DNA of 64,000 nt, taken from contig CAVVDA010000006.1 in NCBI GenBank assembly GCA_963746875.1, positions 65,111 to 129,110 of the forward strand, read 5' to 3'. Origin of the DNA: Thermoanaerobaculia bacterium (lineage in GTDB: Bacteria; Acidobacteriota; Thermoanaerobaculia; UBA5066). A program made the position numbers and the translations under genes. This document shows positions 1 to 64,000 of the stretch, in pieces (position 1 is the stretch's first letter; the number at the start of each line of letters is the position of its first letter). The notes beneath the pieces were generated by a model, which did not search any database, had not been told where the DNA came from, and was given only the letters and a program-made list of their open reading frames with translations.

Positions 1-96
1 CGCGGCGCGTCAGGCACTCCTCGTAGCGAAGCGCGCCGGAGGAAGAGCGAAACGCGGTGTGCGGCTTCGGCGGGCACCTCGCCGAGCTGCATCCGG

Positions 97-1268
97 TCAA
101 TCATCAGCCGACGACCTCGAGGGCGCCGGGGAGCCCTCGCGCTGCGTCGCCTCGATGGACTCGAAGAGCGCGCGGAAGTTGCCGTAGCCGAATCCGCGGT
201 CGCCCTCGCGCTGGATGATCTCGTAGAAGAAGGGGCCGGCCTTCTCGTCGCCGTACATCGCCATGGCGTCGAGCATGAAGATCTGGAGCATGTACTTGTC
301 GTCGGCGCCGTCCAGGAGGATGTGGTTGCGCCGAAGAGCGTCCATCGGCTCCTTGACGTTCGTGATCTTCACGTCCTCGAGGCGCTTCGGCAGCCGGTCG
401 TAGTAGGCGCCCGGAGCCTTCAGGAACTGAATGCCCTCCGCGCGAAGGGCCTCGACCGCGGGAATGATCTCCTTCACGAGGAACGCGATGTGCTGCACGC
501 CCGCGCCGTGATGGTCCTCGCAGAAACGGTTGATCTGGCTCTCGCGGAAGAACGGCCGCATGGGCTCGTTCGTGGCGAACTTCACGCCGCTCTCGGGATC
601 GGCCATGACGATGGACCGCAGGCCGGAGCCCGTCAGCCGGCTGGCCGCCCGCCATCTCGGCCGTGTGGAACTCGACGTCCCAGTAGTGCGTGAACCCGAG
701 GACGTCGCGGTACCAGTTCACGACGGGCAGCATCGTGTAGGCGTTCGACGTCACGTGGTCGATCGTCGCGAAGCCGTGCGGGTTCTCGCGCGGCTTCCCG
801 TCGCCCACGTCCTCGAAATCCGGCGCGAAGCGCGGGTATTTTCCCTTGCGCTCGATGAATCGGAACGTCACGTCGTCGAGCGGCGTCGCGATGTTGAACG
901 TCTTGAAGGTGCCGCCCGGAGCCTCGTCCACCGCGATGTCCGACAGGAACGTCGCGTTGCGCGCCGCCAGGAAATCCCAGGCGCCCTGGATGTCGCGCAC
1001 GCGGAGCGCGAGCGAGGAGATGCCGTCGGGATGGATCCTCAGGAAGCGCGCCGCGCGCGAGTCCTTCCGCTCCGGGCTGGAGACGAGGACGCGGATCTGT
1101 CCGGCGCCGAAGACGGACGCGACCTCGCCGCCCTTTTCGATCTTCGAAGCGGAGGCGCGCGCCACCTCGGAGAAGCCGAGCCCCGCGTAAAACCGGCGGC
1201 TCCGTGTCGAGATCGGCCACGACGAAGTGGAACGAGTCGTAGCCCACGATGCCGAGCGAATCGACCAT
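97..1268 (-). pseudogene. hppD: 4-hydroxyphenylpyruvate dioxygenase; reading frame broken twice as assembled
   Basis: ORF 97..606 holds the C-terminal half (HIAFLV, FLKAPGAYYDRL, QIFMLD, GPFFYEIIQREG, GFGYGNFRALFESIE). The N-terminal VOC domain continues in two other frames up to ATG 1268 (MVDSLGIVGYDSFHFVV; GFTHYWDVEFHTAEM). Frame switches lie near 648 and 1200. Confidence 0.85.
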
Positions 1269-1315
1269 AATGCGATCTTAGTCCGGGGGACCGCCGGGCG
1301 GGAAGACGGCCCGGC

Positions 1316-2602
1316 GTGGAAGGCGCGATGGATCCGCAACGCCTCGTGTACGACTGGAACCGGGCCGCGGGCGAGGGCCGGCCCCGGCACGTTCCCGTCG
1401 AGCTCGTCGACGAGACGCTTCGGGACGGGCTCCAGTCTCCCTCGGCGGTCGCGCCGACGCTCGAGGAGAAGTTCGAGCTTCTCGTCCTGATGGAGCGGCT
1501 CGGGGTCGACACGGCCGTCATCGGGATCCCGGCCGCGGGCGGCAGCTCCGTCGCGGACCTGGAGTGGCTCGTGCGGCGCATGACGGAGGCGCGGCTGTCG
1601 CTCGCGCCCTGCTGCGCGGCGCGCACGCTCGCGTCCGACATCGAGCCGATCATCGAGATCTCGCAGCACACGGGGCGGGCGCTGGAGATGACGACGTTCA
1701 TCGGGTCGTCGCCGATCCGGCAGTACGTGGAGGACTGGGACCTCTCGCGCATGATGAAGCTGACCCGCGACGCCGTGTCGCTCGGCGTCCGCAACTCCCT
1801 TCACGTCACGTTCGTCACCGAGGACACGACGCGCGCCCGCCCCGAGGATCTCGTCTCGCTCTACGGGACGGCCATCGCCGCGGGCGCCACGCGAATCTGC
1901 GTCTGCGACACGGTGGGCCACGCCACGCCCGAGGGCGCCGCCGCGCTCGTGGGCTTCCTCGCGGAGTTCGTGACGCGCGAGAACCCGGCCGTGCGCATCG
2001 ACTGGCACGGCCACGAGGACCGCGGGCTCTCGGTCGCGAACTCGCTCGCGGCGCTGCGCGCCGGGGCGCACCGGGTCCACGGCTGCGGGCTGGGAGTGGG
2101 GGAGCGCGTGGGAAACACGCCGCTCGACCAGCTCCTCGTGAACCTCCAGCTCCTCGGCTGGATCGACCGCGACCTCTCGGCCCTCGCCACGTACGTCGGG
2201 AAGGTCTCGGCCTACCTGAAAGTGCCGATCCCGGACGGCTACCCGGTGGTCGGGCGCGACGCTTTCCGGACCGGGACGGGCGTCCATGCGGCCGCGATCG
2301 TGAAGGCGCGCGCGAAGGGCGACGATTGGCTCGCGGACAGGATCTACTCGGGCGTGCCCGCGGGCATGGTCGGCCTCACGCAGGTCATCGAGGTGGGCCC
2401 GATGTCCGGCGAGTCGAACGTGTTCTTCTGGCTGCGGGCGCGCGGCATCGATCCGACGCCCGGGCGGGTCGCCGCGCTCTACCGGGCCGCGAAGGCCTCC
2501 GACCACGTCCTCTCGGAGTCGGAGATCCGCACGGTGCTTTCGGCCCTGCCGGACCCGGTCGCGGTCGGAAGCGCCCTCCCCGGAGGCCTTCCGCCGTCCT
2601 GA
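1316..2602 (+). CDS. HMGL-like synthase (2-isopropylmalate/citramalate/homocitrate synthase family)
   Basis: Intact 428-aa ORF with a DRE-TIM metallolyase signature (VDETLRDGLQSP), WHGHEDRGLSVANSLAAL and GERVGNTPLD. Divergent from hppD. Confidence 0.75.
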   Translation: MEGAMDPQRLVYDWNRAAGEGRPRHVPVELVDETLRDGLQSPSAVAPTLEEKFELLVLMERLGVDTAVIGIPAAGGSSVADLEWLVRRMTEARLSLAPCCAARTLASDIEPIIEISQHTGRALEMTTFIGSSPIRQYVEDWDLSRMMKLTRDAVSLGVRNSLHVTFVTEDTTRARPEDLVSLYGTAIAAGATRICVCDTVGHATPEGAAALVGFLAEFVTRENPAVRIDWHGHEDRGLSVANSLAALRAGAHRVHGCGLGVGERVGNTPLDQLLVNLQLLGWIDRDLSALATYVGKVSAYLKVPIPDGYPVVGRDAFRTGTGVHAAAIVKARAKGDDWLADRIYSGVPAGMVGLTQVIEVGPMSGESNVFFWLRARGIDPTPGRVAALYRAAKASDHVLSESEIRTVLSALPDPVAVGSALPGGLPPS

Positions 2603-16720: not shown

Positions 16721-19281
16721 TCACGTCACCGGCGCGAGCTTCACCGGTTTCGTGTGCCAGATCTCGCGGACGTAGTCGCGAATCGACCGGTCCGAGCTGA
16801 AGCGCCCCATCCGCGCGACGTTCAGGATCGAGGCGCTCGTCCAACCGACGACGTCGCTCCAGGCTCTGCGAGACGCGCGCCTGGCATTCGACGTAGGCGC
16901 GGAAGTCGGCCAGGACGAGGAAGGGGTCGCTGCTCGACCAGCGCCGTCGGACGAGGGGCCCGAAGAGGCCCGGCTCGTCCGGGCGCGAAGTGGCCGGACT
17001 CGGATGAGGTCGAGGACGTCGGCCAGCTCGCGGTCCGACTCGACGATGCCGCGCGGGTGGTAACCGCGGCGCGACGCGCGTCCTCCACCTCGGCCGCGGT
17101 CAGCCCGAAGAGGAAGAAGTTCTCCGCGCCGACGGCCTCGCGGATCTCGACGTTCGCGCCGTCGAGCGTGCCGATCGTGAGCGCGCCGTTCAGCGCGAAC
17201 TTCATGTTGCCGGTGCCGGACGCCTCCTTGCCCGCGGTCGAGATCTGCTCCGAGAGGTCGGCGGCCGGGTAGATCCGCTGGGCGTTCTTGACGTTGAAGT
17301 CGGGAACGAAGACGACGGCGAGGAGCTCCTTCGCGACGGGGTGCCGCTCGATGGTCTCCCCGACGGCCGTGGCGAGGCGGATGATGAGCTTCGCCGTCTG
17401 GTAGGCGGGCGCCGCCTTGCCCGCGAAGAGGAACGTGCGCGGCGCGATGCCCGCCACGTCGCCGCGGAGGATCCGCTGGTAGAGCCAGGCGACGTGCAGC
17501 AGGTTGAGGAGCTGCCGCTTGTACTCGTGGATGCGCTTGCACTGCGCGTCGAAGAGCGTGTGCGGGTCGACGGTGCGGCCCATCCGGTCGCGGATCCACT
17601 CCGGCGAGGCGCGCCTTGTTGGCCTGCTTCACGGCGCGCCAGCGCTCCCGGAAGACGGCGTCCGCGGCGAGGCGGCTCCAGCTCGGCGAGGCGGTCGAGG
17701 TCCGTGAGCCAGCCGTCGCCGATCGCCTCGGTGACGAGCGACGACAGGCGCGGGTTCGACTAGCGCGACGAAGCGCCGCGGCGTGACGCCGTTGGTGACG
17801 TTCGTGAAGCGCTCGGGCCACAGCTCGGCGAAGTCGCGGAGGACGGTCTCGCGCAGGAGCCGCGAGTGCAGCGCCGCGACGCCGTTGACCTTGTGGCTGG
17901 CGACCGTCGCGAGGTGCGCCATGCGCACGCTCTTCTCGCCGCGCTCGTCGATGAGGCTGCAGCCGCGAGAGCCGCCCGTCGTCGCCCGGGAAGCGCGTCG
18001 CGCACCTCGTCGAGGAAGCGGCGGTTGATCTCGTAGACGATCTCGAGGTGGCGCGGCAGCAGGCGGCCGAAGAGCGGCAGCGGCCACGTCTCGAGCGCCT
18101 CGGGCAGGAGCGTGTGGTTCGTGTAGGCGAACGAGCGCGACGTGATGTCCCACGCCTCGTCCCAGCCGAGGCCGTGCTCGTCCATGAGGAGCCGCATCAG
18201 CTCGGGAACCGCGAGCGCCGGGTGGGTGTCGTTGAGCTGGATCGCGAACTTGTCGGCGAACTCTGTCGATCGTCGTCCGCTGGAGGAGCAGGCGGATGCA
18301 GTCCTGCAGCGCGCAGGAGACGAAGAAGTACTCCTGCTCGAGCCGCAGCTGCTTGCCGGCCGGTCGAGGCGTCGTTCGGGTAGAGGACCTTCGTGATGTT
18401 CTCGCTGCGGATCTTCTCGTCGACCGCGCGCCAGTACTCGCCGACCTGGAACGCGTCGAGGTCGAACTCCTCGGCGGCGACGGCCGCCCACAGGCGGAGG
18501 AAGTTCGTCGTCACCGTGCCGTAGCCCGACGACCGGCGTGTCGTAGGGGACGCCGCTCACGACGCGCGCGGGGATCCACGTCACGCGGCAGCCGGCCGGC
18601 GTCGTCCACGACGGTCTCGGTGCGTCCGCCGAAGCCGACGGGGTGCTCGATCTCGTACCGGCGGACCTCCCACGGGTTGCCGAACCGGAGCCAGCGGTCG
18701 GTGCGCTCGACCTGCCAGCCGTCGCGGATCTCCTGGTCGAAGATGCCGAACTCGTAGCGGATGCCGTGGCCGATGGCCGGGAAGTCGAGCGTCGCCAGCG
18801 AGTCCATGAAGCAGGCCGCGAGGCGCCCGAGGCCGCCGTTGCCGAGGCCGGGCTCCTCCTCGTGCTCGATCAGCTCGTCGAGGTTGAGGCCCAGCGACTC
18901 CATGGCCTTGCGCGCCGGGCCCTCGATGCCGAGGTTGAGGAGGTTGTTGCCGAGCTGCGGCCCCATCAGGTACTCGGCGGAGAGGTAGATGACCGTGCGG
19001 TGCTGCTCCTCGAGATAGGTGCGCGCCGAGCGGATCCACCGGTGGAGGATCCGGTCGCGCACCGCGCGGGCGAGCGCGAGGTAGTGGTCGTTTCGCGTCG
19101 CGACGCCCGGGAACTTGGCGACCTCGAAGAAGAGCTTCTCGACGAACGACCGGCGGATCGCGGCGGCGTCGAGGCCGAGCACCACGTCGTCCGCGTTGAT
19201 GTCCTTCGCCTGCCGGCCGGAGAGCATGGGCGATGATAGGAGACATCTTCGCCGCCGCGTCGAGGAACGCCTTAGCCATCG
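16721..19281 (-). pseudogene. glgP: glycogen/maltodextrin phosphorylase; about 8 frame switches
   Basis: [19 protein letters not shown] (ORF 18511..19353), [28 protein letters not shown] with the PLP lysine (ORF 16822..17583), and the C-terminal FSSDRSIRDYVREIW (ORF 16721..17821). The start is ATG 19281 (MAKAFLDAAAKM, with a shift) or ATG 19227. Confidence 0.9.
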
Positions 19282-19369
19282 GCACCGCGCCGTGTTTTTC
19301 GCGGAACCGCCTGCAGCAAGGTCGGGCCGGACAGGAGGCGGAGAATAGGACATACTGCACGGAGACAGC

Positions 19370-21817: not shown

Positions 21818-21923
21818 CGAAGCGTGCGGATTCCCCGGTTCACTTCGCGCAGAACTCGTCGCGCGCGACTAAGCCCTTGAAAAAAGAGGATACTGCTCGA
21901 AGATCGCGTGGGAATCGAGAGGC

Positions 21924-42975: not shown

Positions 42976-42990
42976 AGAGGGAAGCCGCTC

Positions 42991-43347: not shown

Positions 43348-43434
43348 GCGATCGCTTTCTCCAGGCCGAAATATACGAACTCAATTCCCTCCCGGCATCC
43401 GTAGAAACCCGCACCTCGCGAAGCGCGTCGGCCG

Positions 43435-45133
43435 CTACCTCCGCTTCCGGTAGAGCTGCACGGTCTCGTTCGGCGACGCCACCAGCGGCTCTCCCAGCGG
43501 TTCCCATTCCCCGGTCGCGCAGCACCCTGGTCTTCACCGCCCGCGCTTTGGTGTTCGCGAAGTTGAAGGCGCGGTTCTTCTCCATCCAGTCGAGCGACCG
43601 CGCGTCGGGCAGGAAGATGTAGTCGAGGTCCCGGGAGGCGAGCGATACCAGCGTCGCCAGCTTCTCCTCGTCGTTGCGTCCGGCCACGTCCCGTTCCCAG
43701 GCGACGGGGACCGCGGTGCCGAACGCAACCGTGTCCTCGGGCCGGAAAGTCACTCCCCCGTAGGTCAGCGCGTTGTTGCGCGGCCTGGCGCCGTACTCGA
43801 AGACGAGCACGCTGCGCAGCGCTACGGCGTCGAAATCCGCGATGTGGACGGTTACGAAGCGGGCCAGGGTCCTGCCGGCGCTCAGCGTGTCGTCGCGCAT
43901 CAGTTCCACCGCGCGGCGCAGCGCCGGCATCGTCGGAGCCAGCCCCGGCGGATCCAGGTGCATCCGGTAGCCCAGGGCGACGTTCGCGAGGCAGGCCGCC
44001 ACGGCCAGCGCGGCCGTCACGTTGCGGCCGAGAGAGCTGCCACTCGTGTCCTTTTCAAAGGGGAGCCAGCAGAAAAGGAGCCAGCCGAACACCGCGGGCA
44101 TGGAGACAAAAGGGTTCAAGCCGGCGCCCATGAGCACCAGCATCAGCACCGGCGCCGTGCCGAGCCACAGCACTCTCCAGTGCAGAGCCTTCGCCCACTT
44201 CCCCCAATTGCGACCGAACTCTCTTCGCCGGTCCCACACCTGCAGCAACAGCGCCGAAACGGCGGCGAGCGTCAACGGAATCCCGATGCTGAAGCCGGCC
44301 AGCAGCACGTGGAGGTAGCTGCGTGACAACGGCAGATTCGCGTTCGGATCGGCGCCCCACACGAAGTAGTAGTCGTGGAGCCCCTCGAAGTTGGCGAGGA
44401 GCGCGAGAGAACCCGCGACCGCGGGCGGTCCCCACCACGTCAGCAGGCGCGTCGCCAGGCGGATCCGCTCCGCCCGGGAACCGAAGAAGATCCGGGCCGC
44501 CAGCAGAGGTCCGAACATCACGGCCATGTAGACCGGTGCCGTGGCCCGGTTCAGAATCGCCAGCAGAAGGAACAGCCCGCTCGCCGCCCACGGGCCCCAC
44601 GACGCCGTTTCATACGTGGCCAGATACCAAACCGCCATGTTGGACAGCAGCAGATACAGCATCAGGTCCATGCGGAAATCCGAGACGCCTCCATTTGCGG
44701 CGAAGACCGCGCGGAACGCCAGAAACGGCAGCGTCAGGCAAAACGCGCGGGCGGCGGGCAGGCGGCGGTATCGCGCGAGGTAAAGGAAGACGGACCATCC
44801 CAGCGACAGCATCCAGATCTCCTGAAACCAGATGCCGGCGTGCCGGGACCACGGCAGGACGGGGCTGAACAGGGCCGTGAAGATCCAGGGCAGGGAGACC
44901 GTGCCGACGTGAAGCGCCAGCTTCAACCCCGCCAGGACGCCCTCGTCCCGGGACACCGCCAGGACCGTCGCGTAGTCGTGGAGGTAGGCCATGGAATCGT
45001 AGAACGGTCCCGTCCGGGCATACAGCAGCGTGTTCAGCCGCATCGCGTAGAAGGTCTGCGCGAGTACGCCGAGCGCGACCAGAAGGAGGCCCGCGCGAAG
45101 AGCTCTCCGATCTTCAGCCATGGGATGACCCAT
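43435..45133 (-). pseudogene. polytopic membrane protein with C-terminal soluble domain, unknown function (possibly GT-C-like); one frame switch near 43515
   Basis: About 11 hydrophobic helices (LLLVALGVLAQTFYAM ... MPAVFGWLLFCWLPF) within ORF 42854..45346. After a shift the natural end reads EWEPLGEPLVASPNETVQLYRKRR, with the stop at 43435..43437. Divergent from dnaE. Confidence 0.45.
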
Positions 45134-45161
45134 GGAAGGGCGCACTACAATCGCCGGCCGG

Positions 45162-48100
45162 ATGTCCGGCGACTTCGTCCACCTGCACCTCCACACCCAG
45201 TATTCCCTCCTCGACGGCGCGAACCGGCTCAAGGACCTGATCAAGCAGGTGAAGGCGTCCGGGATGGACGCCGTGGCGGTGACCGACCACGGGAACATGT
45301 TCGGGGCGTACGAGCTCCAGACGACCGCGCTCGAGGCGGGCATCAAGCCGATCCTCGGCGTCGAGGCCTACATCGCGCCCGGATCGCGCTTCGACCGCGA
45401 GAGCGTGAGGACGTTCGACGGCGAGGGGAACAACTATCACCTGACGCTGCTCGTCGAGACGCCGGACGGCTACCGGAACCTGGCGCGGCTCGTGTCCGAG
45501 GCGTTCCTCACCGGCTTCTATTACAAGCCGCGCATGGACTGGGAGCTCCTCGAGAAGTACCACGAGGGAATCATCGCGCTCTCGGGCTGCCTGAACTCGG
45601 AGGTCTCGAAGCGGCTCCGGATGGGCGACTACGAGGGCGCGAAGAAGACGGCCCTGAGGTATCGCGACCTCTTCGGCAAGGACCGCTACTTCATCGAGAT
45701 CATGGATCACGGCCTCCCGGAGCAGCGGCAGATCCTGCCGGACCTGCTGCGGCTCTCCTCGGAGACCGGCATTCCGCCGGTCGCGACGAACGACGCGCAC
45801 TACCTGACGCGCGACGACGCCGCGGCGCAGGACGTCCTCCTCTGCATCGGGATGGGGAAGACGCTCAACGACGCGAAGCGGATGAAGTTCTACAACTCGG
45901 AGTTCTACGTGAAGAACCCCGAGGAGATGAGCGACGTGTTCCGCCCGCTCACGCTCGAGGCCGTGAAGAACACGGCCGCCATCGCGGAGCGCGTCACGCC
46001 CAGCGTCATCGTGGACACGGGGCTCAAGATCCCGATGTTCCCCGTCCCCGGCGGCGACCGGACGCCCGAGGCGTATCTCGAGGACCTCGCGAAGGAGGGG
46101 CTCGAGCGGCGCCTCGAGCCCCAGCGCGCGGCGTTCGAGAACGGCACCGCGAAGAAGCCGCGGCAGGAGTACGACGAGCGGCTGGCGTGGGAGCTCTCGG
46201 TCATCCGGAAGATGGGCCTCTCGAGCTACTTCCTGATCGTCTGGGACTTCATCAAGTACGCGAAGGACGAGGGAATCCCCGTGGGCCCGGGGCGGGGGAG
46301 CGCGGCGGGCTCGCTCGTCGCGTACGCGCTCGCGATCACGGACGTCGACCCGCTCGCTGTACGACCTCCTCTTCGAGCGCTTCCTGAATCCCGGACCGCA
46401 TCTCGATGCCCGACATCGACGTCGACCTCTGCGAGCGCCGCCGCGGCGAGGTCATCGAGTACGTGCGCGGCAAGTACGGGCGCGAGAACGTCGGCCAGAT
46501 CATCACGTTCAACTCGATGAAGGCGCGGGCCGTCATTCGCGACGTGGGCCGCGTCCTCGACGTCCCGCTCGCCGAGGTGAACCGGCTCTGCTCGCTCATC
46601 CCGGCGAACCCGGGCAAGCCGACGATGCTCGCCGAGGCGCGGCGCGACGTGAAGGAGCTGGCGGACGCGCTGCAGGGACAACGAGACCTACCGGCGCCTC
46701 TTCGACCTGGGCGAGCGGCTCGAGGGCGTGTCGCGCCACGCGGGCGTCCACGCGGCCGGCGTCCTCATCGCCCCGAGGCCGCTCGTCGAGTACCTGCCGC
46801 TCTACCGGAACAGCAACGACGAGATCACGACCCAGTTCGAGATGAAGTCGGTCGACCGGATGGGCCTCCTCAAGATGGACTTCCTCGGGCTCATCACGCT
46901 GACGATCCTCGACGACGCGCTGCGCTTCGTGGAGAAGAAGACCGGGAAAGCGCCCGGACCTCGACGACGATCCCGCTCGACGACCCCGAGGTCTACCGGC
47001 TCTTCGCGGACGGACGCACGGACGGCGTCTTCCAGTTCGAGTCGTCCGGCATGCGCGACCTGCTCCGCCGGGTGAGGCCCGAGGTGTTCGACGACCTCGC
47101 CGCCCTCAACGCGCTCTACCGTCCGGGCGCGCTCGACGCCGGAACCGTCGAGGTCTACATCCAGCGCCGCCGCGGGAACGAAGTTCGAGTACCCCCTGCC
47201 GCAGCTCGAGCCGATCCTCAAGGACACGTACGGCGTCCTCGTCTACCAGGAGCAGGTCATGCTCGCGGCGCGTGCCGTGGCCGGGCTATTCGCCCGGCGA
47301 GGCGGACAAGCTCCGCAAGGCCATCGGCAAGAAGGACGAGGCGCTCCTCAAGGCCGAGGGCGACAAGTTCATCAAGAAGGCGGTCGCGAACGGGACGCCG
47401 AAGAAGAAGGCCGAGGAGCTGTGGGCGCTCATCCTGCCGTTCGGCCGCTACGGCTTCAACAAGTCGCATTCGGTCGTCTACGCGCTCCTCGCGTACCGCA
47501 CGGCGTGGATGAAGGTGCACCACCCGGTGGAGTTCCTCGCGGCCACGCTCACGGCCAGCTCGGGCAGCTCGGACGACGTCGTCAAGTACGTGAACACCTG
47601 CCGGGAGATGAAGATCCCCGTGCTGCCGCCGGACGTCAACGCGTCGGACCTTTCGTTCACGCCGGACGGGCCGGCGATCCGGTTCGGCCTCGGAGCCGTG
47701 AAGGGCGTCGGGGAAGGCGCCGTCGCCTCCGTCCTCGCGGCGCGCGCGGGCGACGGCCCGTTCAAGTCCCTGACGGATTTCTGCTCGCGCGTCGACCTCC
47801 GCCTGAACAACCGGCGGGTCATCGAGGCGCTCGATCAAGTCGGGCTGCTTCGACTCCCTCGGGAAGAGCCGCGCGGCGTTTCTCGACGGGCTCGACCATG
47901 CGATCGACGTGGCGGCCGACGCGCGCGAGGCCGCGTCGTCGAATCAGAGCTCTCCTCTTCGACGTCCCGAAGGAGACGCAGATCGAGGACCAGTTTCCCG
48001 ACAAGCCGGAGTGGAGCGTCGACGAGAAGATCCGCTACGAGAAGGAGACGCTCGGCTTCTACATCACGGGCCATCCGCTCGCGCGATTCGAGGACGAGAT

Positions 48101-48723
48101 CCGGATGTTCGGCGACGTGACGTGCGAGACGCTGCGCGAGCGCCTCGACGCGCAGGTGAAGCTCGTCGGGCCTCGTCGGGGCGGTCAAGAAGACCCAGAT
48201 CAAGAAGGGCCAGAACGAGGGGAAGATGATGGCGAAGGCCGTCGTCGAGGACCTCACGGGCTCCGTGCCGGTGACCGTCTTCGCGAGCCTTCTCGAGCGC
48301 GTCGGGTCGTGGCTCGCGCCGGGCCGGCCCGTGCTCGTCACGGGAACGGTGCGCCTCGTCCATGGCGCCCGGCGGCGCGACGCACGATCCGTCCGAAAAC
48401 GAGTCCGCCGGCATGCCGATCGAGATCATCGCGCGCGAGATCCAGCTCGTCGAGGGCATGAAGGAGCAGAGCGCGCGGGAGGTCCTCATCGTCGCCTCCG
48501 AACTTCGAGACGTTCGACGAGGAGGCGCTGGGAGAGATTCTGCAGAAGGTACCCCGGCTCGATGCCCGTCTCGCTCGAGATGCGGCGGCCGGGCCAGTTC
48601 GCGGCGCCGCCACAAGATCTCTCCTCGACCTGTGGGTGCGACCGAGCGCCCGAGTTCACGGCGTCGATGGAGACCCTCCTCGGCCCGGACTCCGTCCGAT
48701 ACTCCTACGCGGCTTCTCCATGA
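45162..48723 (+). pseudogene. dnaE: DNA polymerase III alpha subunit; about 8 frame switches
   Basis: PHP domain ([29 protein letters not shown]), [64 protein letters not shown]. The OB-fold/C-terminus is in ORFs 47272.. and 48226..48723. Confidence 0.92.
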
Positions 48724-48780
48724 CCGCCGAGGGCGAACGCCACGCCCGCGTTCGCCGCCGAGGAGGTCGCCGCCCAGCTC

Positions 48781-49698
48781 GTGCGCGCGGGCGAAGTCGC
48801 CGACCGGCGCGAGGTGGGGTTGTGGTTCGTCGGAGGGGCGCTGCGCGACCTGCTCCTCGGCCGCCCGCTTCACGACGTGGATCTCGCCGTGGAGGCGGCC
48901 GCCGCGACCGCGCTCGAGCTCGCGACGCGTCTCGGCGCGCTGCCCGGCTGGACGCTCGAGAAGTCCCACGCGCGGTTCGGCACGGCGAGGCTCCGGGCGC
49001 CCGGCGGCCTGCGCGTGGACGTCGCCGCCACGCGCCGCGAGGAGTATCCGGCGCCGGCGAGCCTGCCGGTCGTCACGGGCACGACCACGATCGAGGAGGA
49101 TCTCGGGCGCCGGGACTTCACGATCAACGCGATGGCCCGGCGCGTCGGCAGGCGCGGCCTCGACGGGAAGCGTCCTCGACCCTTTCGGCGGCCGAAGGGA
49201 CCTCGACTTCGAAGAACGCTCCGCCTCCTGCACCCGAAATCCCTCGTCGACGACCCGACGCGCGCGTACCGGGCGGTGAAATACGCCGTGCGGCTCGGAT
49301 TCGCGTGGGACGGGGAATTCTCGAGAATGCTCAAGAAGGCCCGCGCAGCGGGAGCATTCGGCGCTCTCTCGGGTGACCGAATGCGCAGGGGATTCGAAGA
49401 GATTTTCTTAGAAGGGGAATGGGAGCGGGCGGCGCAGCTCATCGAGGAGCTCGAACTCCTGGGCGACGTCCTTCCCGGCTGGGCAATCCCCCATTCACCT
49501 TCTAAGAAGAAATCGACCGTCTCGATCCGCAGCTGCGGCATCGCTCGACGCGCCCCGCCGGAGCCCGAGCGTCCGAAAGCAGAAATCTCCTGGAAGCGCC
49601 TCCTCGAGCCGCTGACGGCCGTCGAGCGCGCGGCCGTCGCGTCCCGCCTGAACTTTCCGAAAGCGCTGCGGCGCGCCGCGGACGCGGAGGTGCGATGA
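48781..49698 (+). pseudogene. tRNA nucleotidyltransferase (CCA-adding)/poly(A) polymerase family protein; two compensating frame switches near 49150-49205
   Basis: GGALRDLLLGRPLHDVDLAV, RRDFTINAMA, then LDPFGGRRDL in another frame, returning to HPKSLVDDPTRAYRAVKYAVRLGF. The start may instead be ATG 48720, which overlaps the dnaE stop. Confidence 0.7.
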
Positions 49699-50440
49699 CC
49701 CGGCGCCTGCTTCTCGCGGCTGCTCCTCGCGACAGCTCCGTCTCCGTCGCCCGCTCCGACGCCGACGGCCCTTCCGACGCCGACGCCCGAGAAGCGCGAT
49801 CCTCGTCTCGTCGCCGCGCTCGAGTCCCGGCAGGGCATCGGCATGGAGCGCGTGGCGCTCTTCGACGACGGGACGCTCGTGAGGGTCCGCGGATACCGCG
49901 CCGAGCGGATCGTGGACCGCAAGTCGATCTCGCCGGAGGAGCTCGACGTGGTGCGGAGGGTCTGTCTCGAGGCCCTGGCCGTGCGCGCGAGGGACGTCGA
50001 GGACCCGGCCCGGTCGGCGCTCGGGGACGCGCAGGCGCGGCGCATCACGATCGAGATCGCCGATCCGGCCGGGGGCTCGCGCGTCTACACGTACGACGAC
50101 CTCACGTCGCTGCCGCTGGCGGTGGGGAGAGCGCGGGGAGCGCTGGAGGACCTGCGGTCGCGGTTCGAGAAGCAGGACCTCGCCGAGACGAAGTGGGAGA
50201 CGAAGGCCCTGAAGAGCAGGCGCGTTTCTTCGGCGGCGGGCCGACGGCGTCTGGTATCGCGTCGTCCACGACGACGCGTTGGATCACGATTTCGAGCTCG
50301 AGGAGCTGGACGCGGGCGGCGAGCAGGGGAGCCACAAGGTGAGGATCTTCGTGTATCGCGGCGACATCCCGCGCCTCTTCGAGGATCCCGCCACCGCGGG
50401 TCCGCGGCCGCCCGCGCCCTCGCCTGCCGCGAGGCGCTGA
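49695..50440 (+). pseudogene. hypothetical secreted/lipoprotein-like protein; 2-3 frame switches
   Basis: ATGA overlap with the upstream stop. A Pro/Thr-rich linker, then a GC3-consistent frame (ORF 49843.. MERVALFDDGTLVRVRGYRAERIV ... YTYDDLTSLPLAVGRARGALEDL). The tail (VWYRVVHDDALDHDFELEE ... IFVYRGDIPRLFEDP) ends at TGA 50438..50440. Confidence 0.4.
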
Positions 50441-50442
50441 GC

Positions 50443-51036
50443 ATGGTGCGCCTGACCGCGGCGGAACCTGGCGCGGGCGGAAGCTCGAGATCCCGCCGGG
50501 CATCCGGCCGACGACCGAGCTCGCGCGCAAGGCGGCGTTCGACATCCTCGGGGATGCGGTCGTCGGCGCCAGGGTGCTGGACGCGTGCGCGGGCTCGGGA
50601 GCGTACGGCCTCGAGGCGCTCTCGCGGGGCGCCGCGCACGCGACGTTCGTCGAAGCGGATCGGTGGCGTCGCGAAGAGTCTTGAGGGGGAATGTGGAGCG
50701 GCTCGGTGCGGGGGAGCGCGCGTCCATCGAAGAGATGTCCGTGGCCCGTTTTTCTTCGATGACCCATTCACGGTGAAGAGGTGAGCAGGCCCTGGCTGCG
50801 CCCGGACGCGACCGCGTTCGACGTGGTCTTTCACGATCCCCCTTTCGAAGAAAATCCTCCGAATCCGACCTTCAGCTTCTCTTGTCACTCGTGCGCGCAG
50901 GCGGCTGGCTCTTTCACGAGCGCGGGGACGACCGCGTGTTCTCGTCCCGGCGGGACTCGAGCCAGCCGACCGCCGGCGCTACGGCACGACGCGTTTCCTC
51001 ATTTTCCGCCCCTCGCGGGCCCGATCGCCCTGCTAA
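50443..51036 (+). pseudogene. rsmD: 16S rRNA (guanine966-N2)-methyltransferase RsmD-like; 3-4 frame switches
   Basis: [46 protein letters not shown], and the C-terminal [13 protein letters not shown], distributed over three frames. Confidence 0.6.
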
Positions 51037-52292: not shown

Positions 52293-55770
<3,478 letters not shown>

Positions 55771-56951
55771 CCCTCGTGGGGCTGGGCGTTTGAACGGCGG
55801 CCGCCGTTGCCGTCGCGACCGCCGGAGCGGCGGCCTTCACCGGCAGGGAGAAGACGGCCTTGTCCCGCCGCACGCGGGCGAGCGCGAAGACGCCGAACGC
55901 CAGGAGGAGGAGGTTCGGCAGCCACATCGCGAGAGCCGGTGACATCCGACCCTCGATCGCGCGGGCCTCGCCCGTGGCGAGGAGGGCGTAGTAGAGAAGC
56001 ACGATCGCGACCGACACCGCGAATCCGGCCGCCCGCCCCCCGCGCCGGTTGACGATTCCGAGCGGCAGCCCGATGAGGCCGAAGACGAGGCAGGCTGCCG
56101 GCAGCGCGAACTTCTTGTGGACCTCGGTGAGCGCGAGCCTCCGGTCCTCGGGCCGCCGCGTGCGGGCCGCGGCGCGTTCCAGAAGCTCGCGCAGCGTCTG
56201 CTCGCGGATCTGCTTCTCCGTGACGCCGCGCGCCGGGCCGTTGTCCTGCAGGACCATGCGGTGCCGGGAGAAGGACGTCACGTCGTACCGCGTGCCGCCG
56301 TCCTGCATGTGGTGGGTCTCGGCGTCCTCGACGCGCAGCCAGAGACGGCCCTGGTCCTCCTCGAGCTCCAGCCAGCCTCTCCTCGCGAGCGTCAGCCGTT
56401 CCCCTTCGGCGCTGGAGCGGTCCGAGATGATGAGACCCGTGAGCTCGCGGCGATCGGTCGAGGCCCCCTCGGCGTAGACCCTCAGGCCCGGCGATCTCCG
56501 GGACTGAAGACGCCCGGCTGGATCCTCTGGGCGAACGCGAAGCTCGAGAGGCGGAGCTTCATCGCGTAGAGCAGGTGATTCGTGCGCGGGACGACGGCGA
56601 GCATCAGCGCGAGCGTCGCGGCTCCGATCGCAACGGCGAGGAATCCGATCGGGCCGGTAGAGGGTCAGCAGATCGACGCCCGAGGCGCGCAGGGCGGTCA
56701 GCTCGGAGTCGGCCGACAGCCGTCCGATGCCGATCAGGAGCCCCAGGAGAAACGCGATGGGCAGCGTGAGGACGACGATGTGCGGGAGCGAGAGGGCGAC
56801 GACCAGCGCCGGCCTCGACGAACGGCTGCTCGCTCTGGACGAGAAGCTCCGAGAACTGCACGAGCCCGCGGACGGCCATGAACCCCGTGTAGGCGAGGAA
56901 GCCCACGAGCGTGGGCGCGAGAACCTCTCGAAAGACGTAACGGTTCAACAG
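55771..56951 (-). pseudogene. lptF: LPS export permease LptF (YjgP/YjgQ family); at least 4 frame switches, no stop before lptG as assembled
   Basis: N-terminus LNRYVFREVLAPTLVGFLAYTGFMAVRGLVQFSELLV (CTG/TTG start near 56951-56948). LPIAFLLGLLIGIGRLSADSELTALRASG is in another frame. The C-terminal TM helices (FALPAACLVFGLIGLPLGI, LAMWLPNLLLLAFGVFAL) are in ORF 54659..56308. Confidence 0.65.
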
Positions 56952-57070
56952 CGCGCTGCACGGAGCCGATGGTAGCCGAAGGAAGGATCTCCAGCTCTTC
57001 CCAGCGCCAATACGCAACGTCCGATAATATTTATTATGTTAAATACTAGATGACACCTTGCCTGAAATCA

Positions 57071-58159
57071 TTAGGCGTGCCAGAGGACCGGCTCTCCCGA
57101 CGATCTCGTCGAGTGACGGGCGCGCCGAGGTAACGCGCAGCTCCGGTGGCGAGCGCGGCCTGATCTCACGACGCCGTCGCGTGCGTCGAGCGGACGTTCC
57201 GCGCACCTGCAGCGAAGATCGGCCGCTCCGACGCTCGTTCGTCGGGAGCGTTCTATTTCTTCGTTCGCTTTCGCCTTCACGAAGCGGCCCTGCGTCTCGA
57301 GGTCGATGTCCCCTGCTTCGATCCGCCGCGCGAGATCGCGAATCGCTTCGAGGATCTCGTCCTTCTTGTGGAGGCGGCCCTTGAGCACGAGGCTCACCTT
57401 GTAGCGCTTGTCCTCCGGAGCGAAGTCGAGCGTGTAGGCCTTCTTCAGTCCACCGAGCTTCGAGCTTCGGGCCGCGCCGCGCGTCCTTCTTCACCTCCCG
57501 CAGAACGTCGCGGCTCAACGATCTCGCCGCTCGCCATCGCCCTCACCGCGGCGAGCATGAGGTCTTCGTCCTTCAGCCTTCCGAGCTCGAGCAGGAACGA
57601 CCGCGACCCGATGTCGGCGCGCCGACATTCCGCCTGCACGCGATCCGGAAGCCGTCGCGATCGACAGCGCCTCCGTGATCGTCACGCGCGACTTCCCCAC
57701 GGCGTCGGCGATCTGCTCGTGCGTGTACCCGTGGCGTTCCTGAAGCGCCTTGTAGCCCTCGGCCTCCTCGAACGGACTCAGGTCCTTGCGCTGCAGGTTC
57801 TCGATGAGCGCGATCTCGAGCAGCTCGTTGTCCGGGCACGTCCATCTCGATGCACGGAATCTCCGAGAGACCCGCGTCGAGGGCACGCGCGGAAGCGGCG
57901 CTCGCCCGAGATGATCGTGAAGCGCCCGTCGCCTCGGGGCCGCACGAGGATCGGCTCGAGGACGCCCTTGTCGACGATCGACTTCGTGAGCTCGGCGAGG
58001 TCTCCCATCGCGCTGCGCGGCTGATCGGGATTCGCCTCGATGAGGTGAATGGGAATGCGGCGCCCGACCGGGAGCTCGTCCGCACGGACGAGCTGCTCGA
58101 CGAAGTGCGAGTCGTGACGCATGCGCGAAGATCTCGGGCAGGCCGCGGCGCTTAGACAC
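57071..58159 (-). pseudogene. parB: chromosome partitioning protein ParB/Spo0J; 4-5 frame switches, 3' end uncertain
   Basis: GTG 58159 overlaps the parA stop (VSKRRGL...). Contains [55 protein letters not shown] and the [25 protein letters not shown]. The C-terminal part is spread over ORFs 57445.., 57039.. and 57071..57397. Confidence 0.8.
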
Positions 58160-58985: not shown

Positions 58986-59473
58986 TCACATCCGGTACTT
59001 GCCGAGGGTGTCCGGATCGGCTTCCTCGAGCCACTTTCTCAAGCCGCTCGGCGTTCTGCGCTTCCGCGGTGTCTTCCCCGCTCCGGCTCATCTCGAGGAC
59101 CGACTCCTCCACGAAGACGGGCGCCCGGAGCCGGAGAGCCAGCGCGATCGCATCCGACGGGCGGCTGTCGACGAGCACGTCCTTGTTCGCGACCCGGAGG
59201 TGGATCTGGGCGTAGAACGTGTTTTCCTTGAGGCTGTTGATGACGACGCGCAGCACGTCGCCCTCGATCTGCGTGATGAGGTTCTTGAGGAGATCGTGAG
59301 TCATCGGCCTGCGGCGTCGTGACGCCCTCCATCTGCAGCGCGATGGCGTTCGCCTCGAAGACTCCGACCCAGATCGGCAGGAAGTTCTTCTCCTCCTCGT
59401 CGCGCAGGATCACGACCGGCATGTTCGCGATCGGATCGACGATCAGCGCTTTGACGTCCATCTTGACGCTCAA
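58986..59473 (-). pseudogene. bifunctional nuclease family protein (DUF151/BFN); two +1 frame switches
   Basis: MPVVILRDEEEKNFLPIWVGVFEANAIALQMEG (ORF 59039..59473), then HDLLKNLITQIEGDVLRVVINSLKENTFYAQIHL ... DSRPSDAIALALRLRAPVFV (ORF 58954..59304). The natural end reads KWLEEADPDTLGKYRM, with the stop at 58986..58988. Confidence 0.7.
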
Positions 59474-59602
59474 GGCGGTCTCTCCTGGGACTCAATCTAG
59501 GGAGGAAACGCGGATAAAGCAAGGAAGAGGCCACAATCCACAGGCATTCGTCTGCTGTTAACTTCTTTTTTTAGAATGAATTAGAGAAGATTTCCAGAAG
59601 AC

Positions 59603-59701
59603 GGAAAAACCGGGATTTCTTAGAAGGTGCCCGTGCCGGGATCGCCCGCTCGTCGGCACTCGAGCTACGGCATCTCTCATTCGACCTTTCTAAGAAAATC
59701 C
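59603..59701 (-). terminator. long imperfect hairpin starting at the miaB stop, followed by a T5 run; arms belong to the recurrent TTCTTAGAAGGT motif
   Basis: GGATTTCTTAGAAGGT (59613..59628) pairs with ACCTTTCTAAGAAAATCC (59684..59701); the only differences are run lengths. Nested inner stems: GTGCCG/CGGCAC and CCGT/ACGG. On the minus strand the stem is followed by CGGTTTTTCC (59603..59612). Confidence 0.45.
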
Positions 59702-61058
59702 TCCTCTTCGATTCTCTCGTCTTCTTCCGAGCAGCGAGTTCGGAAAGCCCCGCTCGATCCGCACGTTCACGAGCGTGCCCGGGGGCAGCGCGGACTCCCC
59801 CGCGATGTTCACGACGCGGTTGCAGCGGGAGCGGCCGGAGCTGATGCGCCGCTTTCTGTCGAGACCCTCGACGAGCACCTCGAGCGTCCGTCCTTCCAGC
59901 TCGCGGTTCAGCTCGCCGCTGGATCTCCTGCTGAATCGCCATGAGGCGCGCGAGGCGCGCGAGACGCCTCCCGCGGCGTGACGTCGTGCTCCCAGCGGAG
60001 CGCGGCGGTCTGCGGGCGAGGCGAATACGTGAACGAGAAGACACCGGCGAACCTGCACCTCTTCGAGCAGCGAGAGCGTTGCGGCGAAGTCGTCGTCCGT
60101 CTCGCCCGGGAAGCCCACGATGACGTCGGTCGAGAGCGCGAGGTCCGGAATGGCGTCGCGCAGAGACGCCGACGAGGTCGAGGTACTCCGCGCGCGTGTA
60201 CTGGCGCTTCATGCGGCGCAGCACCGCGTCGGAGCCGGACTGGACCGGCAGGTGCAGCGCGGGAACGACCGCGGGCGTCTCGGCCATCGCCGCGATGAGG
60301 CGGGCGGAGAAATTGCGCGGGTGGGACGTCACGAAGCGCAGGCGCCGGAGTCCCGGCAGCGCGCCGACCGCGCGCAGGAGATCGGCGAGATCCTCGCCCG
60401 TCTCCGGATCGCGGAACGCGTTCACGGTCTGCCCGAGGAGCTCGATCTCCAGGGCTCCCTCGGCGAGCAGGCGGCGGGACTCGTCCACGACGTCGCTGCA
60501 GCCGGCGATTGCGCTCGCGCCCGCGCGTGCGGGGGACGACGCAGAAGGTGCAGTTCTTGTTGCAGCCCTCGATGACCGTGATCGCGGCGCGGTACGCCAC
60601 CGAGCGCGCGATCGCGCCCGGCGTGTAGACGACCTCGTCCGGGTCGAAGCCGGTCTCGCAGGGCCGGTCGTCCTCTTCCTCGACGCGGCGCAGAACCGAC
60701 GGAAGGGCTCTCGATGCGTCCCGTTCCGAGCACGAAGTCGACCTGCGGCAGGCGCTCGAGGAGTCTCTCCCCTTCCTGCTGCGCGACGCAGCCGCAGACG
60801 CCGAGCACGGTGTCCGGGCGCTCGCGCTTCAGCTTCGCGAGGCGCCCGAGCCGGTCGTAGACCTTCTGCTCGGCCTTGTCGCGAACCGAGCAGGTGTTGA
60901 GGAGAATGACGCCGGCTTCCTCGGGCGACGCCGCTTCGGAGAAGCCCTCGCGAGCGAGAAGCCCGACGAACCGCCGCCCGTCGAGGACGTTCATCTGGCA
61001 GCCCCACGTCTCCACGAAGACGCTTCGGGCCGCGCGGCGGAAGCGGAGGAACGCTCAC
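59690..61058 (-). pseudogene. miaB: tRNA (N6-isopentenyl-A37) methylthiotransferase MiaB; at least 5 frame switches
   Basis: ETWGCQMN, NTCSVRDKAEQKV, GVCGCVAQQEG, the radical-SAM cluster EGCNKNCTFCVVP (ORF 59908..60600), and a TRAM-like C-terminus (ORF 59690..60118). Confidence 0.85.
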
Positions 61059-61095
61059 GTCGCGAGCTTAGCAGGAGCGAAATCCTCGGTCGGCT

Positions 61096-61816
61096 CTATC
61101 GCAGCCAGCCCGGAGGGGCGTTCGACTTGCGGGCGTCCTCGGAGAGGTCGTCGAAGGCCTTGCGCGCGTCCTCGAGCTCCTGGCGCGCCTTCGCGAGGTC
61201 CTCGCGCGCCTTGTCCCACGCGGGCTTGACGACGGCGTCGCGCCTGTTGCCGTCGCTCATCGCGTAGAAGTCGTTCTCGAGCTGCTTCGATTTCGTCTCG
61301 AGCTCGCGCACGCGCAACTCGCCGTTCGCGACGGACGCTTTCGCACGTTCCACGAGGCTCCTCCAGTCGTCTTCGCTTCGCCCCTTGTCGTCGCGAGCGA
61401 CGTAAGGGGTGGCGGCCGGCGACGGAGCCGCCGAAGGCGCCTCCTTCCCGGAGGCCTTGGCCGGAAGAGCTCTTGCCGGCCGCGCCTTTGGGCGTCGGGG
61501 TCGGCGTGCCTCCTTTTCTCACGTTGTCGTTCGTGATCGTCCCGAGGGACTTTTTCGGCGGCTGATCCTTGCGCGCCTCCTTGGAGAGCTTCACGACGTC
61601 GGCGAGCGAGCGCCCGCTTCCCGAGGTCTGGGCCTTCCCCCCGGACAGAACGGGCGCGGCCGGGGTCGGGACCGGGGTCATCGACGTCGCGGACGCCGGG
61701 GTGGGCTCCGGGGTCAGGCCGGACAGCGCGGGCTCCTGTGCCGCGTTGACCGCGAGCGCGAGCGCGAGCGACCGCCGCGAGCGAGGTCAGCGCCTCGGCG
61801 GACCGCACGTCTTCAT
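61096..61816 (-). pseudogene. secreted coiled-coil protein of unknown function; 2-3 frame switches
   Basis: ATG 61816 overlaps the upstream stop (ATGA). Signal-like LTSLAAVARALALAV, a Pro/Thr/Lys-rich linker (ORF 61055..61681), and a C-terminal coiled coil intact in ORF 61096..61353 (LRVRELETKSKQLENDFYAMSD ... ARQELEDARKAFDDL). Confidence 0.4.
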
Positions 61817-62198
61817 GGCGTCGACGTTCCTTCGCGGCCGTAGCGGTCGGCGAGCCGGACCACGTCGTCGAGCTCCGGCGTCGAGACCTCGACGACGAGG
61901 CAGTCGGCTTCGCCCGCGTACATGCGGTGCCGCGTCCCGGGCTCCACGTGAAAGGTCTCACCGGGAGCGAGCCGGAGATCGGCCTTCTCCCCGGCCCTCT
62001 CGACCTCGAGCCCGAGGATTCCCTCGAGGACGTGGATCGTCTCTTCCTTGCGATTGTGGTACTGGTAGCGAGAGCGACTCGCCCGCCCGGATGAGGATCA
62101 GCTTGCCGGCGTACCGCCCGGTTTCGGCGAAGATGCGCTCCTCGCCCCACGGCTTCGGCGACGACCCGCGGCCGGCCGGTTCCGAAGGGCCCGCTCAT
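61813..62198 (-). pseudogene. small cupin-domain protein; 1-2 frame switches
   Basis: ATG 62198 overlaps the ptsI stop. Stitched frames give KPWGEERIFAETGRYAGKLILIRAGE ... HNRKEETIHVLEGILGLEVE ... LAPGETFHVEPGTRHRMYAGE ... VVEVSTPELDDVVRLADRYGR. Confidence 0.5.
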
Positions 62199-63968
62199 GC
62201 GCCGACCGCGGCGAGGTCGCGCAGCTCCTGCGCGAGGAACGACGCGACTTCATCCGCGGTCGACATCGAGAGCGCGGCCTGCGCGACGCGCTCGGCGTCC
62301 CGTGTGGAGACTCCGCGCAGGAATTCCTTCACCACCGGGACCGTGCGCGGCGCCCATCGAGAATTCGCGAATTCCGAGGCCGAGAAACAGCAGGACGAGC
62401 GCGGGGTCCGCGGCCATCTCGCCGCACACGGAGAGCGGCTTCTGGGCGGTCCGGGCCGCGTCGGCGACGCGCGCCACGAGGCGCAGCACCGCGGGATGTG
62501 TCGGCCGGAACAGGTCCGAGACCGTCTCGTTCGCACGGTCCACGGCGAGCGTGTACTGGATGAGGTCGTTCGTCCCGAGGGCGAGGAAGTCCACCTCGGG
62601 CGCGAGCAGATCGGCCGTCATCGCGGCCGAAGGAACTTCGATCATCGCGCCGAGCGGGACGTCGTCGGGCACGGCGATGCCCCGCTCGAGCACGTCCTCC
62701 CGCGCCTCCTTCAGGAGAATCCGCACGCGGCGGATCTCCTCGACGCCCGAGACCATCGGGACGAGGATGCGGAGGTTGCCGCCGAAGCGGCGGCGGCCAG
62801 CAGGGCCCGCAGCTGCGTGGAGAACATCTCCGGGCGCGCGAAGCACAGGCGCACGCCCCGGAGCCCGAGGACCGGATTGGATCTCGTCGGACCCGACGAG
62901 ATGGCGGGCGCCTTTCTTGCCGCCGAGGTCGTACGTCCGGATCACGACGGGGCGCGGCGCGAGACTCTCGAGGACCTCGCGGTACGCGAGCGACTGCTCT
63001 TCCTCGGACGGGAACTCGGTCGCCGTCCTTGGAAAGGTAGAGAAACTCGGACCGGAACAGGCCGACCCCGTCGGCCCCGTATTCCAGGACGTCGCGGACC
63101 TCGTTCAGGAGCTCGATGTTCGCCCGCACGAAAACCTCGGCGCCGTCGTGCGTGCGGGTGATGCCGTCGTGGCTGCGCTCCTTGAGCGACTTCTCGTGGC
63201 GGGCCTCCTGGTCGCGGCGCTCGCGGAAGAGACGCGACGACGCTCTCGGACGGCTCGCGCCAGACGAGCCCGTCCCGGCCGTCGACCACGACGCGGTCGC
63301 CCTCCGCGATTTCCGCGAGGAGCTGCGGCACGCCGACCACCGCGGGAAGGCCGAAGGAACGGGCGAGGATCGCGGCGTGGGACGTGCGGCCGCCGCGCTC
63401 GGTCACGAAGGCCACGACGCGGTCGCGCGGGATGCGCACGGCATCGGACGGCGTGAGCTCGTCCGCCACGAGGACGATCGCCTCTCCCGCGAGGTCCTCC
63501 ATCCTCAGGCGCGAGTACTCTTCGCCGCCGAGGTGCTTCTTGAGGATGCGCGCGACGTCGTCGATGTCGGCTCCGTGATGCGCGAAATCCTCGTCCGGCA
63601 GACTCCGGAACCGCGCCGAGAGGTCCGACGGTCGTTTCGGCGACCGCCCACTCGGCGTTGACTTTCTCGTGCGCGATCCGGCGCTCGATCGGGCCGAGAA
63701 AGGTGCGGTCCTTCAGGAACAGGGCGTGCGCCTGGAAGATCCCCGCGTACTCGGCGCCGAGGCTCTCCTTCACGTGCCGGGCCGTGGACTCGATCTCGTG
63801 GACGGCGGACTCGGCCGCCCGGCGGAACCGCTCGATCTCGGACTCGATCTCCTCCGGCTCGAGAGTCCGCTTCGGCGAGGAATCCTCTCGCGAGACCCAG
63901 AGCACGGCACGCCCGACGGCGACGCCGGGCGATACGGGGATCCCGGTGAGCGAAAGCGGACGCTTCAC
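62195..63968 (-). pseudogene. ptsI: phosphoenolpyruvate-protein phosphotransferase (PTS enzyme I); at least 6 frame switches
   Basis: GTG 63968 (KRPLSLTGIPVSPGVAVGRAV), the phospho-His motif GGRTSHAAILARSFGLPAVVG, then [29 protein letters not shown] and SVCGEMA. Confidence 0.9.
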
Positions 63969-64000
63969 CGTCCTATTGTAACGGTCGCGGCGTTCTAGTC

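Follow-up and report, generated by a model that had tools for sequence, protein, structure and literature searches.

Extra bases in conserved genes of a 64-kb Thermoanaerobaculia assembly stretch, probably consensus errors from reads of closely related strains

Genes and frame breaks in the window

The window analysed in this study, a stretch of 64,000 nucleotides from an assembled genome of Thermoanaerobaculia bacterium, carries dnaE, guaA, metK, glgP, ptsI, miaB, lptFG, parB and xerD, together with hemF, hppD, cusA, ahcY and the further genes listed in Table 1. Frame-shifting events were counted by aligning intact proteins of related Thermoanaerobaculia assemblies to the window in a frameshift-aware manner, and 39.9 kb was covered. 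This homology-guided tally comprised 103 insertions and 5 deletions of one base, and 11 insertions and 2 deletions of two bases. One-base insertions outnumbered one-base deletions with p = 7e-25 (sign test), in line with a preliminary description of this DNA, according to which almost all frame breaks are +1 shifts by a single base. Among the 129 events of the whole window, 121 were homology-guided and eight rest on codon usage only. When relatives were aligned with each other by the identical method, no event was called in nine genes. One-base gaps in blastn alignments between relatives were balanced (9 vs 9), and those between the relative L081 and the window numbered 46 vs 6.

Insertions were counted in each of the nine conserved genes named first above, all of which had been described as readable only by changing frame, and the eight switches in one direction reported for guaA correspond to eight one-base insertions. 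The breaks previously located near 2763 and 2955 in xerD and near 25883 in the histidine kinase gene were recovered at or close to these positions (Table 1), and the hemF break reported near 10740 was seen as one +1 switch at 10733/10734, across which Pfam coverage was unbroken. The minus-strand hppD and BFN-domain genes contained only insertions, in agreement with the shift direction reported for them. Apparent -1 switches on the codon-usage path (12612, 13717, 23057, 24201 and 43017) were attributed to gene boundaries or spurious ORF extension and not to deletions.

Table 1 Frame-shifting events, allele doublets and event-free stretches in the window. Counts for single genes are from frameshift-aware alignment.
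Feature	Position	Strand	Detail
Whole window	1..64000	.	129 frame-shifting events: 111 one-base and 11 two-base insertions, 5 one-base and 2 two-base deletions
dnaE			16 one-base, 0 two-base insertions
guaA			8 one-base, 0 two-base insertions
metK			2 one-base, 0 two-base insertions
glgP			13 one-base, 2 two-base insertions
ptsI			5 one-base, 1 two-base insertions
miaB			6 one-base, 0 two-base insertions
lptFG			6 one-base, 0 two-base insertions
parB			6 one-base, 0 two-base insertions
xerD	2764, 2954		2 one-base, 0 two-base insertions
hppD			2 one-base, 1 two-base insertions
BFN-domain gene			2 one-base, 0 two-base insertions
cusA	40193, 40383		2 one-base, 0 two-base insertions
Histidine kinase gene	25900		1 one-base, 0 two-base insertions
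Error block: hypothetical gene and guaA	4586..6041	+	12 events, including the 8 one-base insertions in guaA
Error block: glgP	16868..18588	-	15 events = 17 extra bases; no deletions vs the 91%-identical L087 and L103
Error blocks: large multicopper oxidase	28607..32128	-	13 events; relatives distant, so that two-base deletion/one-base insertion and one-base deletion/two-base insertion are indistinguishable
TonB-dependent receptor	33347..35061	-	five +1 frame switches, codon usage only
Error block: second multicopper oxidase	36208..37923	+	15 events
Error block: 3' two-thirds of dnaE, cca, hypothetical gene, rsmD	46359..50945	+	27 events
Error block: 5' part of lptFG and parB	56489..58132	-	10 events
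Error blocks: BFN-domain gene, miaB, cupin gene, ptsI	59043..63629	-	17 events
Event-free stretch: GGDEF-EAL gene, porin-like gene, response regulator, most of kinase	18589..25899	.	7.3 kb, the longest
Event-free stretch: most of cusA, membrane protein gene, first third of dnaE	40384..46358	.	6.0 kb
Methyltransferase gene tail	53264..53278	+	net +1
Seven extra bases at ahcY stop	54630..54636	+	GGACGTA ahead of GGACCTA
Doublet GC	16929..16930	-	L087 C, L103 G
Doublet GC, dnaE	46672..46673	+	L081 C, L086 G
Doublet AC, dnaE	46967..46968	+	L081 GCG (Ala), L086 GAG (Glu)
Doublet GA, dnaE	47833..47834	+	L081 A, L086 G
Doublet GC, parB	57836..57837	-	L081 C, L086 G

The events were strongly clustered. 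In 1-kb bins, the ratio of variance to mean was 2.69, as compared to a simulated maximum of 1.74, and blocks with ca. 6 breaks per kb were separated by clean gaps. Block edges fell within dnaE, cusA and lptFG; in dnaE, the first 1.2 kb is clean with no event up to 46355, and all 16 events follow. Isolated single events were found at 7788, 10734, 13590 and 25900. Event density showed no correlation with substitution divergence. The PAS-GGDEF-EAL gene of the window, which shares no synteny with its nearest relatives, is closest to genes of Steroidobacteraceae (73%).

Relatives, soil contigs and corrected frames

Comparison with related genomes showed that the extra bases are absent from the assemblies L081-L087, L103 and L226. 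In glgP, alignment with L087 and L103 (91% nucleotide identity) gave 15-16 insertions and no deletion. As an independent check, short-read contigs from eight soil runs with 93-99% identity were examined. One base was left out in nine of the nine indel rows for glgP and in 11 of the 12 best-supported rows for the dnaE region, in both cases mostly at the sites called by alignment, and no soil short-read contig carrying an insertion was seen in these two regions. A search of public sequencing runs returned soil runs only, each containing at most 0.22 of the words of the window; these runs represent relatives and not the source. An exact look-up of the ParA protein of the window gave no match.

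When the extra bases were skipped, full-length orthologues were obtained for DnaE (1-1181 of 1181, 90% identical to the best relative), GuaA (1-512 of 512) and GlgP (1-842 of 842). The corrected glgP gave a single continuous match to Pfam Phosphorylase (2-712 of 713), and no stop codon occurred in the corrected frames. These observations bear on whether the extra bases could be real, either through gene decay or through pervasive +1 recoding, four-base codons or transcript editing. The bases are present in the deposited sequence, and their single direction resembles that of known +1 recoding systems. However, they are missing from all relatives and soil contigs, the breaks begin and end within genes, larger deletions are absent, and dnaE, guaA, metK, parB and ptsI would all have to be dead, yet their corrected frames are free of stops and match orthologues end to end. 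This explanation is extremely improbable. Its particular forms were each rejected: genome decay on the excess of insertions over deletions (103 vs 5), the stop-free corrected frames, the essential genes affected and the conservation of DnaE; programmed +1 frameshifting or four-base decoding on the lack of both a shift-site motif (no position around the insertion sites exceeded 0.15 bit) and the extra base in relatives; and transcriptional slippage, which needs long A or T runs, on sites that are mostly single bases in a G+C-rich context. Decoding of CGGN as a four-base codon was rejected as well, since the CGG-Gly form was found in 1 of 67 events and CGG is an ordinary triplet, with 86 in-frame occurrences in six unbroken frames. 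The frame breaks are an assembly artefact and not a biological feature, and the genes would be intact in the organism.

Inserted bases and adjacent alleles

The preliminary description had ascribed the breaks to a systematic consensus error, and not to pseudogenisation, programmed frameshifting or slippage. This part agrees with the unshifted relatives and the stop-free frames, whereas its more specific proposal, that G or C runs were lengthened by one base in base calling or consensus building, does not, because the insertions are mostly outside runs. Among 99 insertions typed on DNA, a position next to an identical base was possible for 33 and obligatory for 22. Simulation predicted 47-53% for random insertion and 89-96% for run extension; the observed share is below the former (p = 0.004), so the identity of neighbouring bases noted earlier is at or below chance. 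Counted per relative, run-compatible events made up 31-39% as against the 89-96% of the run-extension model (p = 6e-42). In 50 well-typed events, the inserted bases were G18, C15, T9 and A8, which corresponds to the genome composition (p = 0.76) and means that 34% were A or T, and 15 of the 50 did extend a run. Many insertions of a non-run base have perfect flanks, such as gaaTccc, aactCtgt and agcccGacg. Homopolymer over-calling fits GGG at 40385, GG at 17003, CC at 18361 and GGG at 57836, but as a general explanation it is very improbable. An identical base on both flanks was seen in 14 of 35 events vs 24% expected, a modest excess.

Individual sites gave the same picture. In cusA, both extra Gs had been said to extend runs; this holds at 40385 but not at the site given as 40198, where the G lies between T and C (40192) and the G run of the relative is longer, not shorter, than that of the window. 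In dnaE, the site near 46392, taken as a duplicated G, was typed with zero mismatches as an inserted T flanked by A and C at 46389. The ahcY gene had been singled out as the one exception, short of one base at about 54627. Its body aligned without a shift, and seven extra bases were found at its stop, where the Thr-stop region stands in two tandem variants differing in one letter; deletion of seven bases restored the terminus EEGT followed by the stop, as in relatives.

The frequency with which two relatives gap different, non-equivalent neighbouring bases at one insertion was compared with that in simulated random insertions. For L087 and L103, gap placement was discordant at 6 of 13 sites vs 6.8% simulated (p = 1e-4), and for L081 and L086, at 18 of 32 sites vs 18% simulated (p = 1.5e-6). 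In such alignments the window reads XY, against X in one relative and Y in the other (doublets in Table 1). At about half of the insertion sites, the window thus carries both alleles of a variable site in tandem. At the remaining sites, approximately half, gap placement was concordant between relatives.

The extra bases are therefore probably errors of consensus building or polishing from reads of at least two closely related, co-occurring strains, and we infer that a long-read or hybrid consensus step on mixed strains was the source. At a strain-variable site, the alignment may have represented the two alleles by one insertion and one deletion instead of a mismatch; retention of both letters would then have turned a substitution into a one-base insertion. 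The seven-base doublet at the ahcY stop may be a larger instance of this event, and stretches that derive from a single strain or are identical between strains would have remained clean, giving the block pattern. The shortage of identical neighbours is expected from mixed strains if one neighbour is the alternative allele, and the concordant sites would require that the second allele be private to the sample.

Plain insertion noise of error-prone long reads (ca. 0.6%), polished with short reads only where these mapped well and involving no strain variation, is another candidate, which we regard as unlikely. It accounts for errors that are insertions only, for blocks of ca. 6 per kb beside clean blocks, for the isolated events and for inserted bases that follow the genome composition. 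Codon positions are compatible with random placement too: 18 of 25 well-typed non-run insertions touched the third position, for which the expectation is 67% at random and an estimated ca. 86% under a model of mostly synonymous SNPs, and a second method gave 19:9:8. However, such noise predicts neither that the inserted base equals the adjacent-site allele of a second relative (46-56% observed vs 7-18% simulated) nor the shortage of neighbour-identical insertions. That the tandem allele pairs are real DNA, for example from recombination between diverged strains and a repair that keeps both mismatched bases, with hundreds of +1 shifts in essential genes tolerated through recoding, has next to no probability, and nothing in the data of this analysis supports it.

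Known consensus errors and use of the assembly

In the PacBio assembly of Trypanosoma brucei Lister 427, INDEL errors were introduced where allelic variants lay close by when alleles were collapsed (Cosentino, Brink and Siegel 2021, PMC8445201). Allelic variants shifted read alignments, consensus INDELs truncated ORFs, and phasing restored full-length genes (PMC8445201). The mixed-strain reading of the window resembles that case in that INDELs at nearby variants break ORFs in a collapsed consensus. In T. brucei, the two haplotypes were those of a diploid eukaryote and the reads were in hand, whereas here the haplotypes would be those of bacterial strains sharing a soil metagenome, read from the assembly alone; moreover, unlike in T. 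brucei, nearly all errors are insertions of one base. Passages in the descriptions of long-read metagenome assembly (proovframe, 10.1101/2021.08.23.457338; Sereika et al. 2022, PMC9262707) report that small consensus indels break gene calls in healthy MAG genes, and name indels from homopolymer regions as the classic Nanopore problem. The window is similar to what these passages describe in that small indels break the gene calls of otherwise healthy genes, and different in having hardly any deletions and in that two thirds of its events are not located in a run.

The relevance of these findings is to quality control and not to biology. The signature, namely insertions only, outside runs, in blocks and with adjacent alleles, distinguishes the artefact both from homopolymer errors and from genuine recoding. 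Assemblies of this kind could be flagged or repaired on that basis, and false claims of recoding prevented. This genome serves as a species representative, and frameshift errors occur at ca. 6 per kb in about one third of the window. Gene calls and pseudogene counts derived from the genome will be wrong, as will estimates of its completeness and protein databases that draw on it; for example, the methyltransferase gene loses its stop through the net +1 in its tail and is thereby joined in frame to ahcY, producing an artefactual ORF of 784 aa.

Number and direction of the frame breaks

A codon-usage Viterbi path run across all six frames of the window contained dozens of frame switches, nearly all from phase k to k+1 from left to right on both strands. 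The breaks were counted with a frameshift-tolerant protein-to-DNA aligner written for this analysis, with the relatives' intact proteins as queries and the window as target. Over 39.9 kb, this alignment yielded 103 one-base insertions, 11 two-base insertions, five one-base deletions, and two two-base deletions, although in the two multicopper oxidases, whose relatives are distant, a two-base deletion and a one-base insertion are indistinguishable, as are a one-base deletion and a two-base insertion. Eight further +1 switches outside this total came from codon usage alone. Pfam domain coverage was unbroken over the hemF junction and along the stitched GlgP. No frameshift was called when nine proteins of L081 were aligned to the DNA of L086 (both loci from related assemblies). 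One-base gaps in blastn numbered 9 versus 9 between relatives and 46 versus 6 between the window and L081. The frameshift-aware alignment proposed as a check in the preliminary description thus bore out its claim of pervasive +1 insertions.

Frame-shifting events and allele doublets in the window (ins1, one-base insertion; alignment, frameshift-aware alignment)
Feature	Position	Event or doublet	Basis or relatives' bases
dnaE		16 ins1	alignment
guaA		8 ins1	alignment
glgP		13 ins1 + 2 two-base	alignment
lptFG		6 ins1	alignment
parB		6 ins1	alignment
miaB		6 ins1	alignment
ptsI		5 ins1 + 1 two-base	alignment
metK		2 ins1	alignment
xerD		2 ins1	alignment
cusA		2 ins1	alignment
kinase		1 ins1	alignment
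HMGL, cusB, methyltransferase body, ahcY body, parA		0 each	alignment
speE-like gene	7788	+1 switch	codon usage alone
hemF	10734	+1 switch	codon usage alone
SPFH gene	13590	+1 switch	codon usage alone
TonB receptor		five +1 switches	codon usage alone
doublet	16929	GC	C / G
doublet	46672	GC	C / G
doublet	46967	AC	GCG (Ala) / GAG (Glu)
doublet	47833	GA	A / G
doublet	48491	GT	T / G
doublet	57836	GC	C / G

The extra bases are an artefact and not a biological feature. Real pseudogenes or recoding, already rejected in the preliminary description, are contradicted by corrected frames that are intact, by the lack of the extra bases in relatives, by block edges that are independent of genes, and by the insertion sites, around which no sequence motif was found. 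Recoding is further opposed by the ordinary use of CGG, which occurs 86 times in frame in unbroken genes, and by the CGG-Gly form occurring in only 1 of 67 events. The orthologues of the stitched DnaE, in records named Thermoanaerobaculia (Acidobacteriota), are intact at 1181–1182 aa, the top match being 90% identical.

Identity of the inserted bases

For each one-base insertion, all deletion positions minimising mismatches to a relative were listed in a 21-base frame. Insertions could be placed beside an identical base in 31–39% of cases per relative (33 of 99 after merging relatives), whereas the same procedure gave 47–53% for simulated random bases and 89–96% for simulated run extension. 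Well-typed inserted bases (G18, C15, T9, A8) followed genome composition; the G+C content of the window is 69%. Hence, while the artefact reading stands, the accompanying proposal that homopolymer over-calling duplicated a neighbouring G or C fails its own test.

Two relatives placed the gap on different neighbouring bases at 6 of 13 sites (L087/L103, glgP loci) and 18 of 32 sites (L081/L086), compared with 6.8% and 18% when random insertions were simulated on these alignments (p = 1e-4 and p = 1.5e-6, respectively), because the window reads XY against X in one relative and Y in the other. The insertions thus fall at naturally variable sites, with both alleles carried, which also explains a neighbour identity below the random level. 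At the ahcY stop, described previously as an exception with a G-run one base short, there are instead seven extra bases, GGACGTA in front of GGACCTA; the relatives' Thr codon there is ACG or ACC, and removing the seven bases gives EEGT*, matching the relatives. This duplication is an allele doublet on a larger scale. The methyltransferase tail carries a net +1, joining that gene to ahcY.

We infer that reads from co-occurring strains were merged into one sequence, with mismatches resolved as insertions; collapsed alleles in a PacBio assembly are a published precedent (PMC8445201).

Distribution in blocks and soil contigs

The blocks held 115 events in 19.1 kb (ca. 6 per kb), and event-free stretches between them reached 7.3 kb. 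In 2000 uniform simulations, the longest event-free gap was 5.5 kb and the variance/mean of 1-kb bins did not exceed 1.74, compared with 2.69 in the window. Block edges fell within genes: dnaE was event-free to 46355 and carried 16 events thereafter, cusA had two events 190 bases apart followed by 2.6 kb of clean sequence, and lptFG was dirty, clean, and dirty along its length. Event density showed no correspondence with substitution divergence. Simple insertion noise from long reads, polished patchily, accounts for the blocks but leaves the allele doublets unexplained. Isolated insertion pairs lay in otherwise clean sequence at 2764/2954, 40193/40383, and 54747/54916, and their spacing (190, 190, and 169 bases) may reflect the patch size of a consensus or polishing step.

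Public run searches found no source reads; the share of the window's words present in any one run was at most 0.22. Relatives at 93–99% identity were present in many soil metagenomes. Among the 12 indel rows with the best support over 44000–50000, 11 were soil contigs leaving out one base, mostly at alignment-called sites, as were 9 of 9 indel rows over glgP (17500–18700), at alignment-called sites; no contig with an insertion was seen in the latter interval.

Window and related loci

L081–L085 were syntenic from dnaE to ptsI (45145–63982; 81–86% nucleotide identity) and L086 from hppD to guaA and from dnaE to parA (78–83%); L087 and L103 matched glgP (91%), and L226 matched the kinase and the stretch from the second multicopper oxidase gene to cusBA (72–88%). 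In L086, dnaE almost directly follows guaA, whereas ca. 38.5 kb (6525–45100) separates them in the window, carrying a spermidine-synthase-like membrane protein, purU, hemF, SPFH genes, glgP, a GGDEF-EAL gene, a two-component pair, and a copper block (two multicopper oxidases, TonB receptor, cusBA). The glgP flanks are unlike those of the relatives, although glgP itself is 91% identical. This interval could represent variable sequence, a chimeric join being another possibility.

P0053, called in a relative's record (JGI contig, 6018 bases), is a 1520-aa product with DnaE and poly(A)-polymerase/CCA domains together; since the two genes share an ATGA overlap in other relatives, it looks like a fusion from one frameshift in another assembly. 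The glgP frame is 1005 aa in L103 (MFD05942.bin.2.82) and 842 aa in L087, and the aligner found one shift near either end of the L103 gene; this long-read MAG may have end errors of its own there.

Four copies of an AT-rich palindromic word, TTCTNAGAA, are present in the window (0.25 expected by chance). They form two pairs, one spaced by 95 bases within the 3' part of cca (49405–49508) and one spaced by 71 bases between the BFN gene and miaB (59617–59696).
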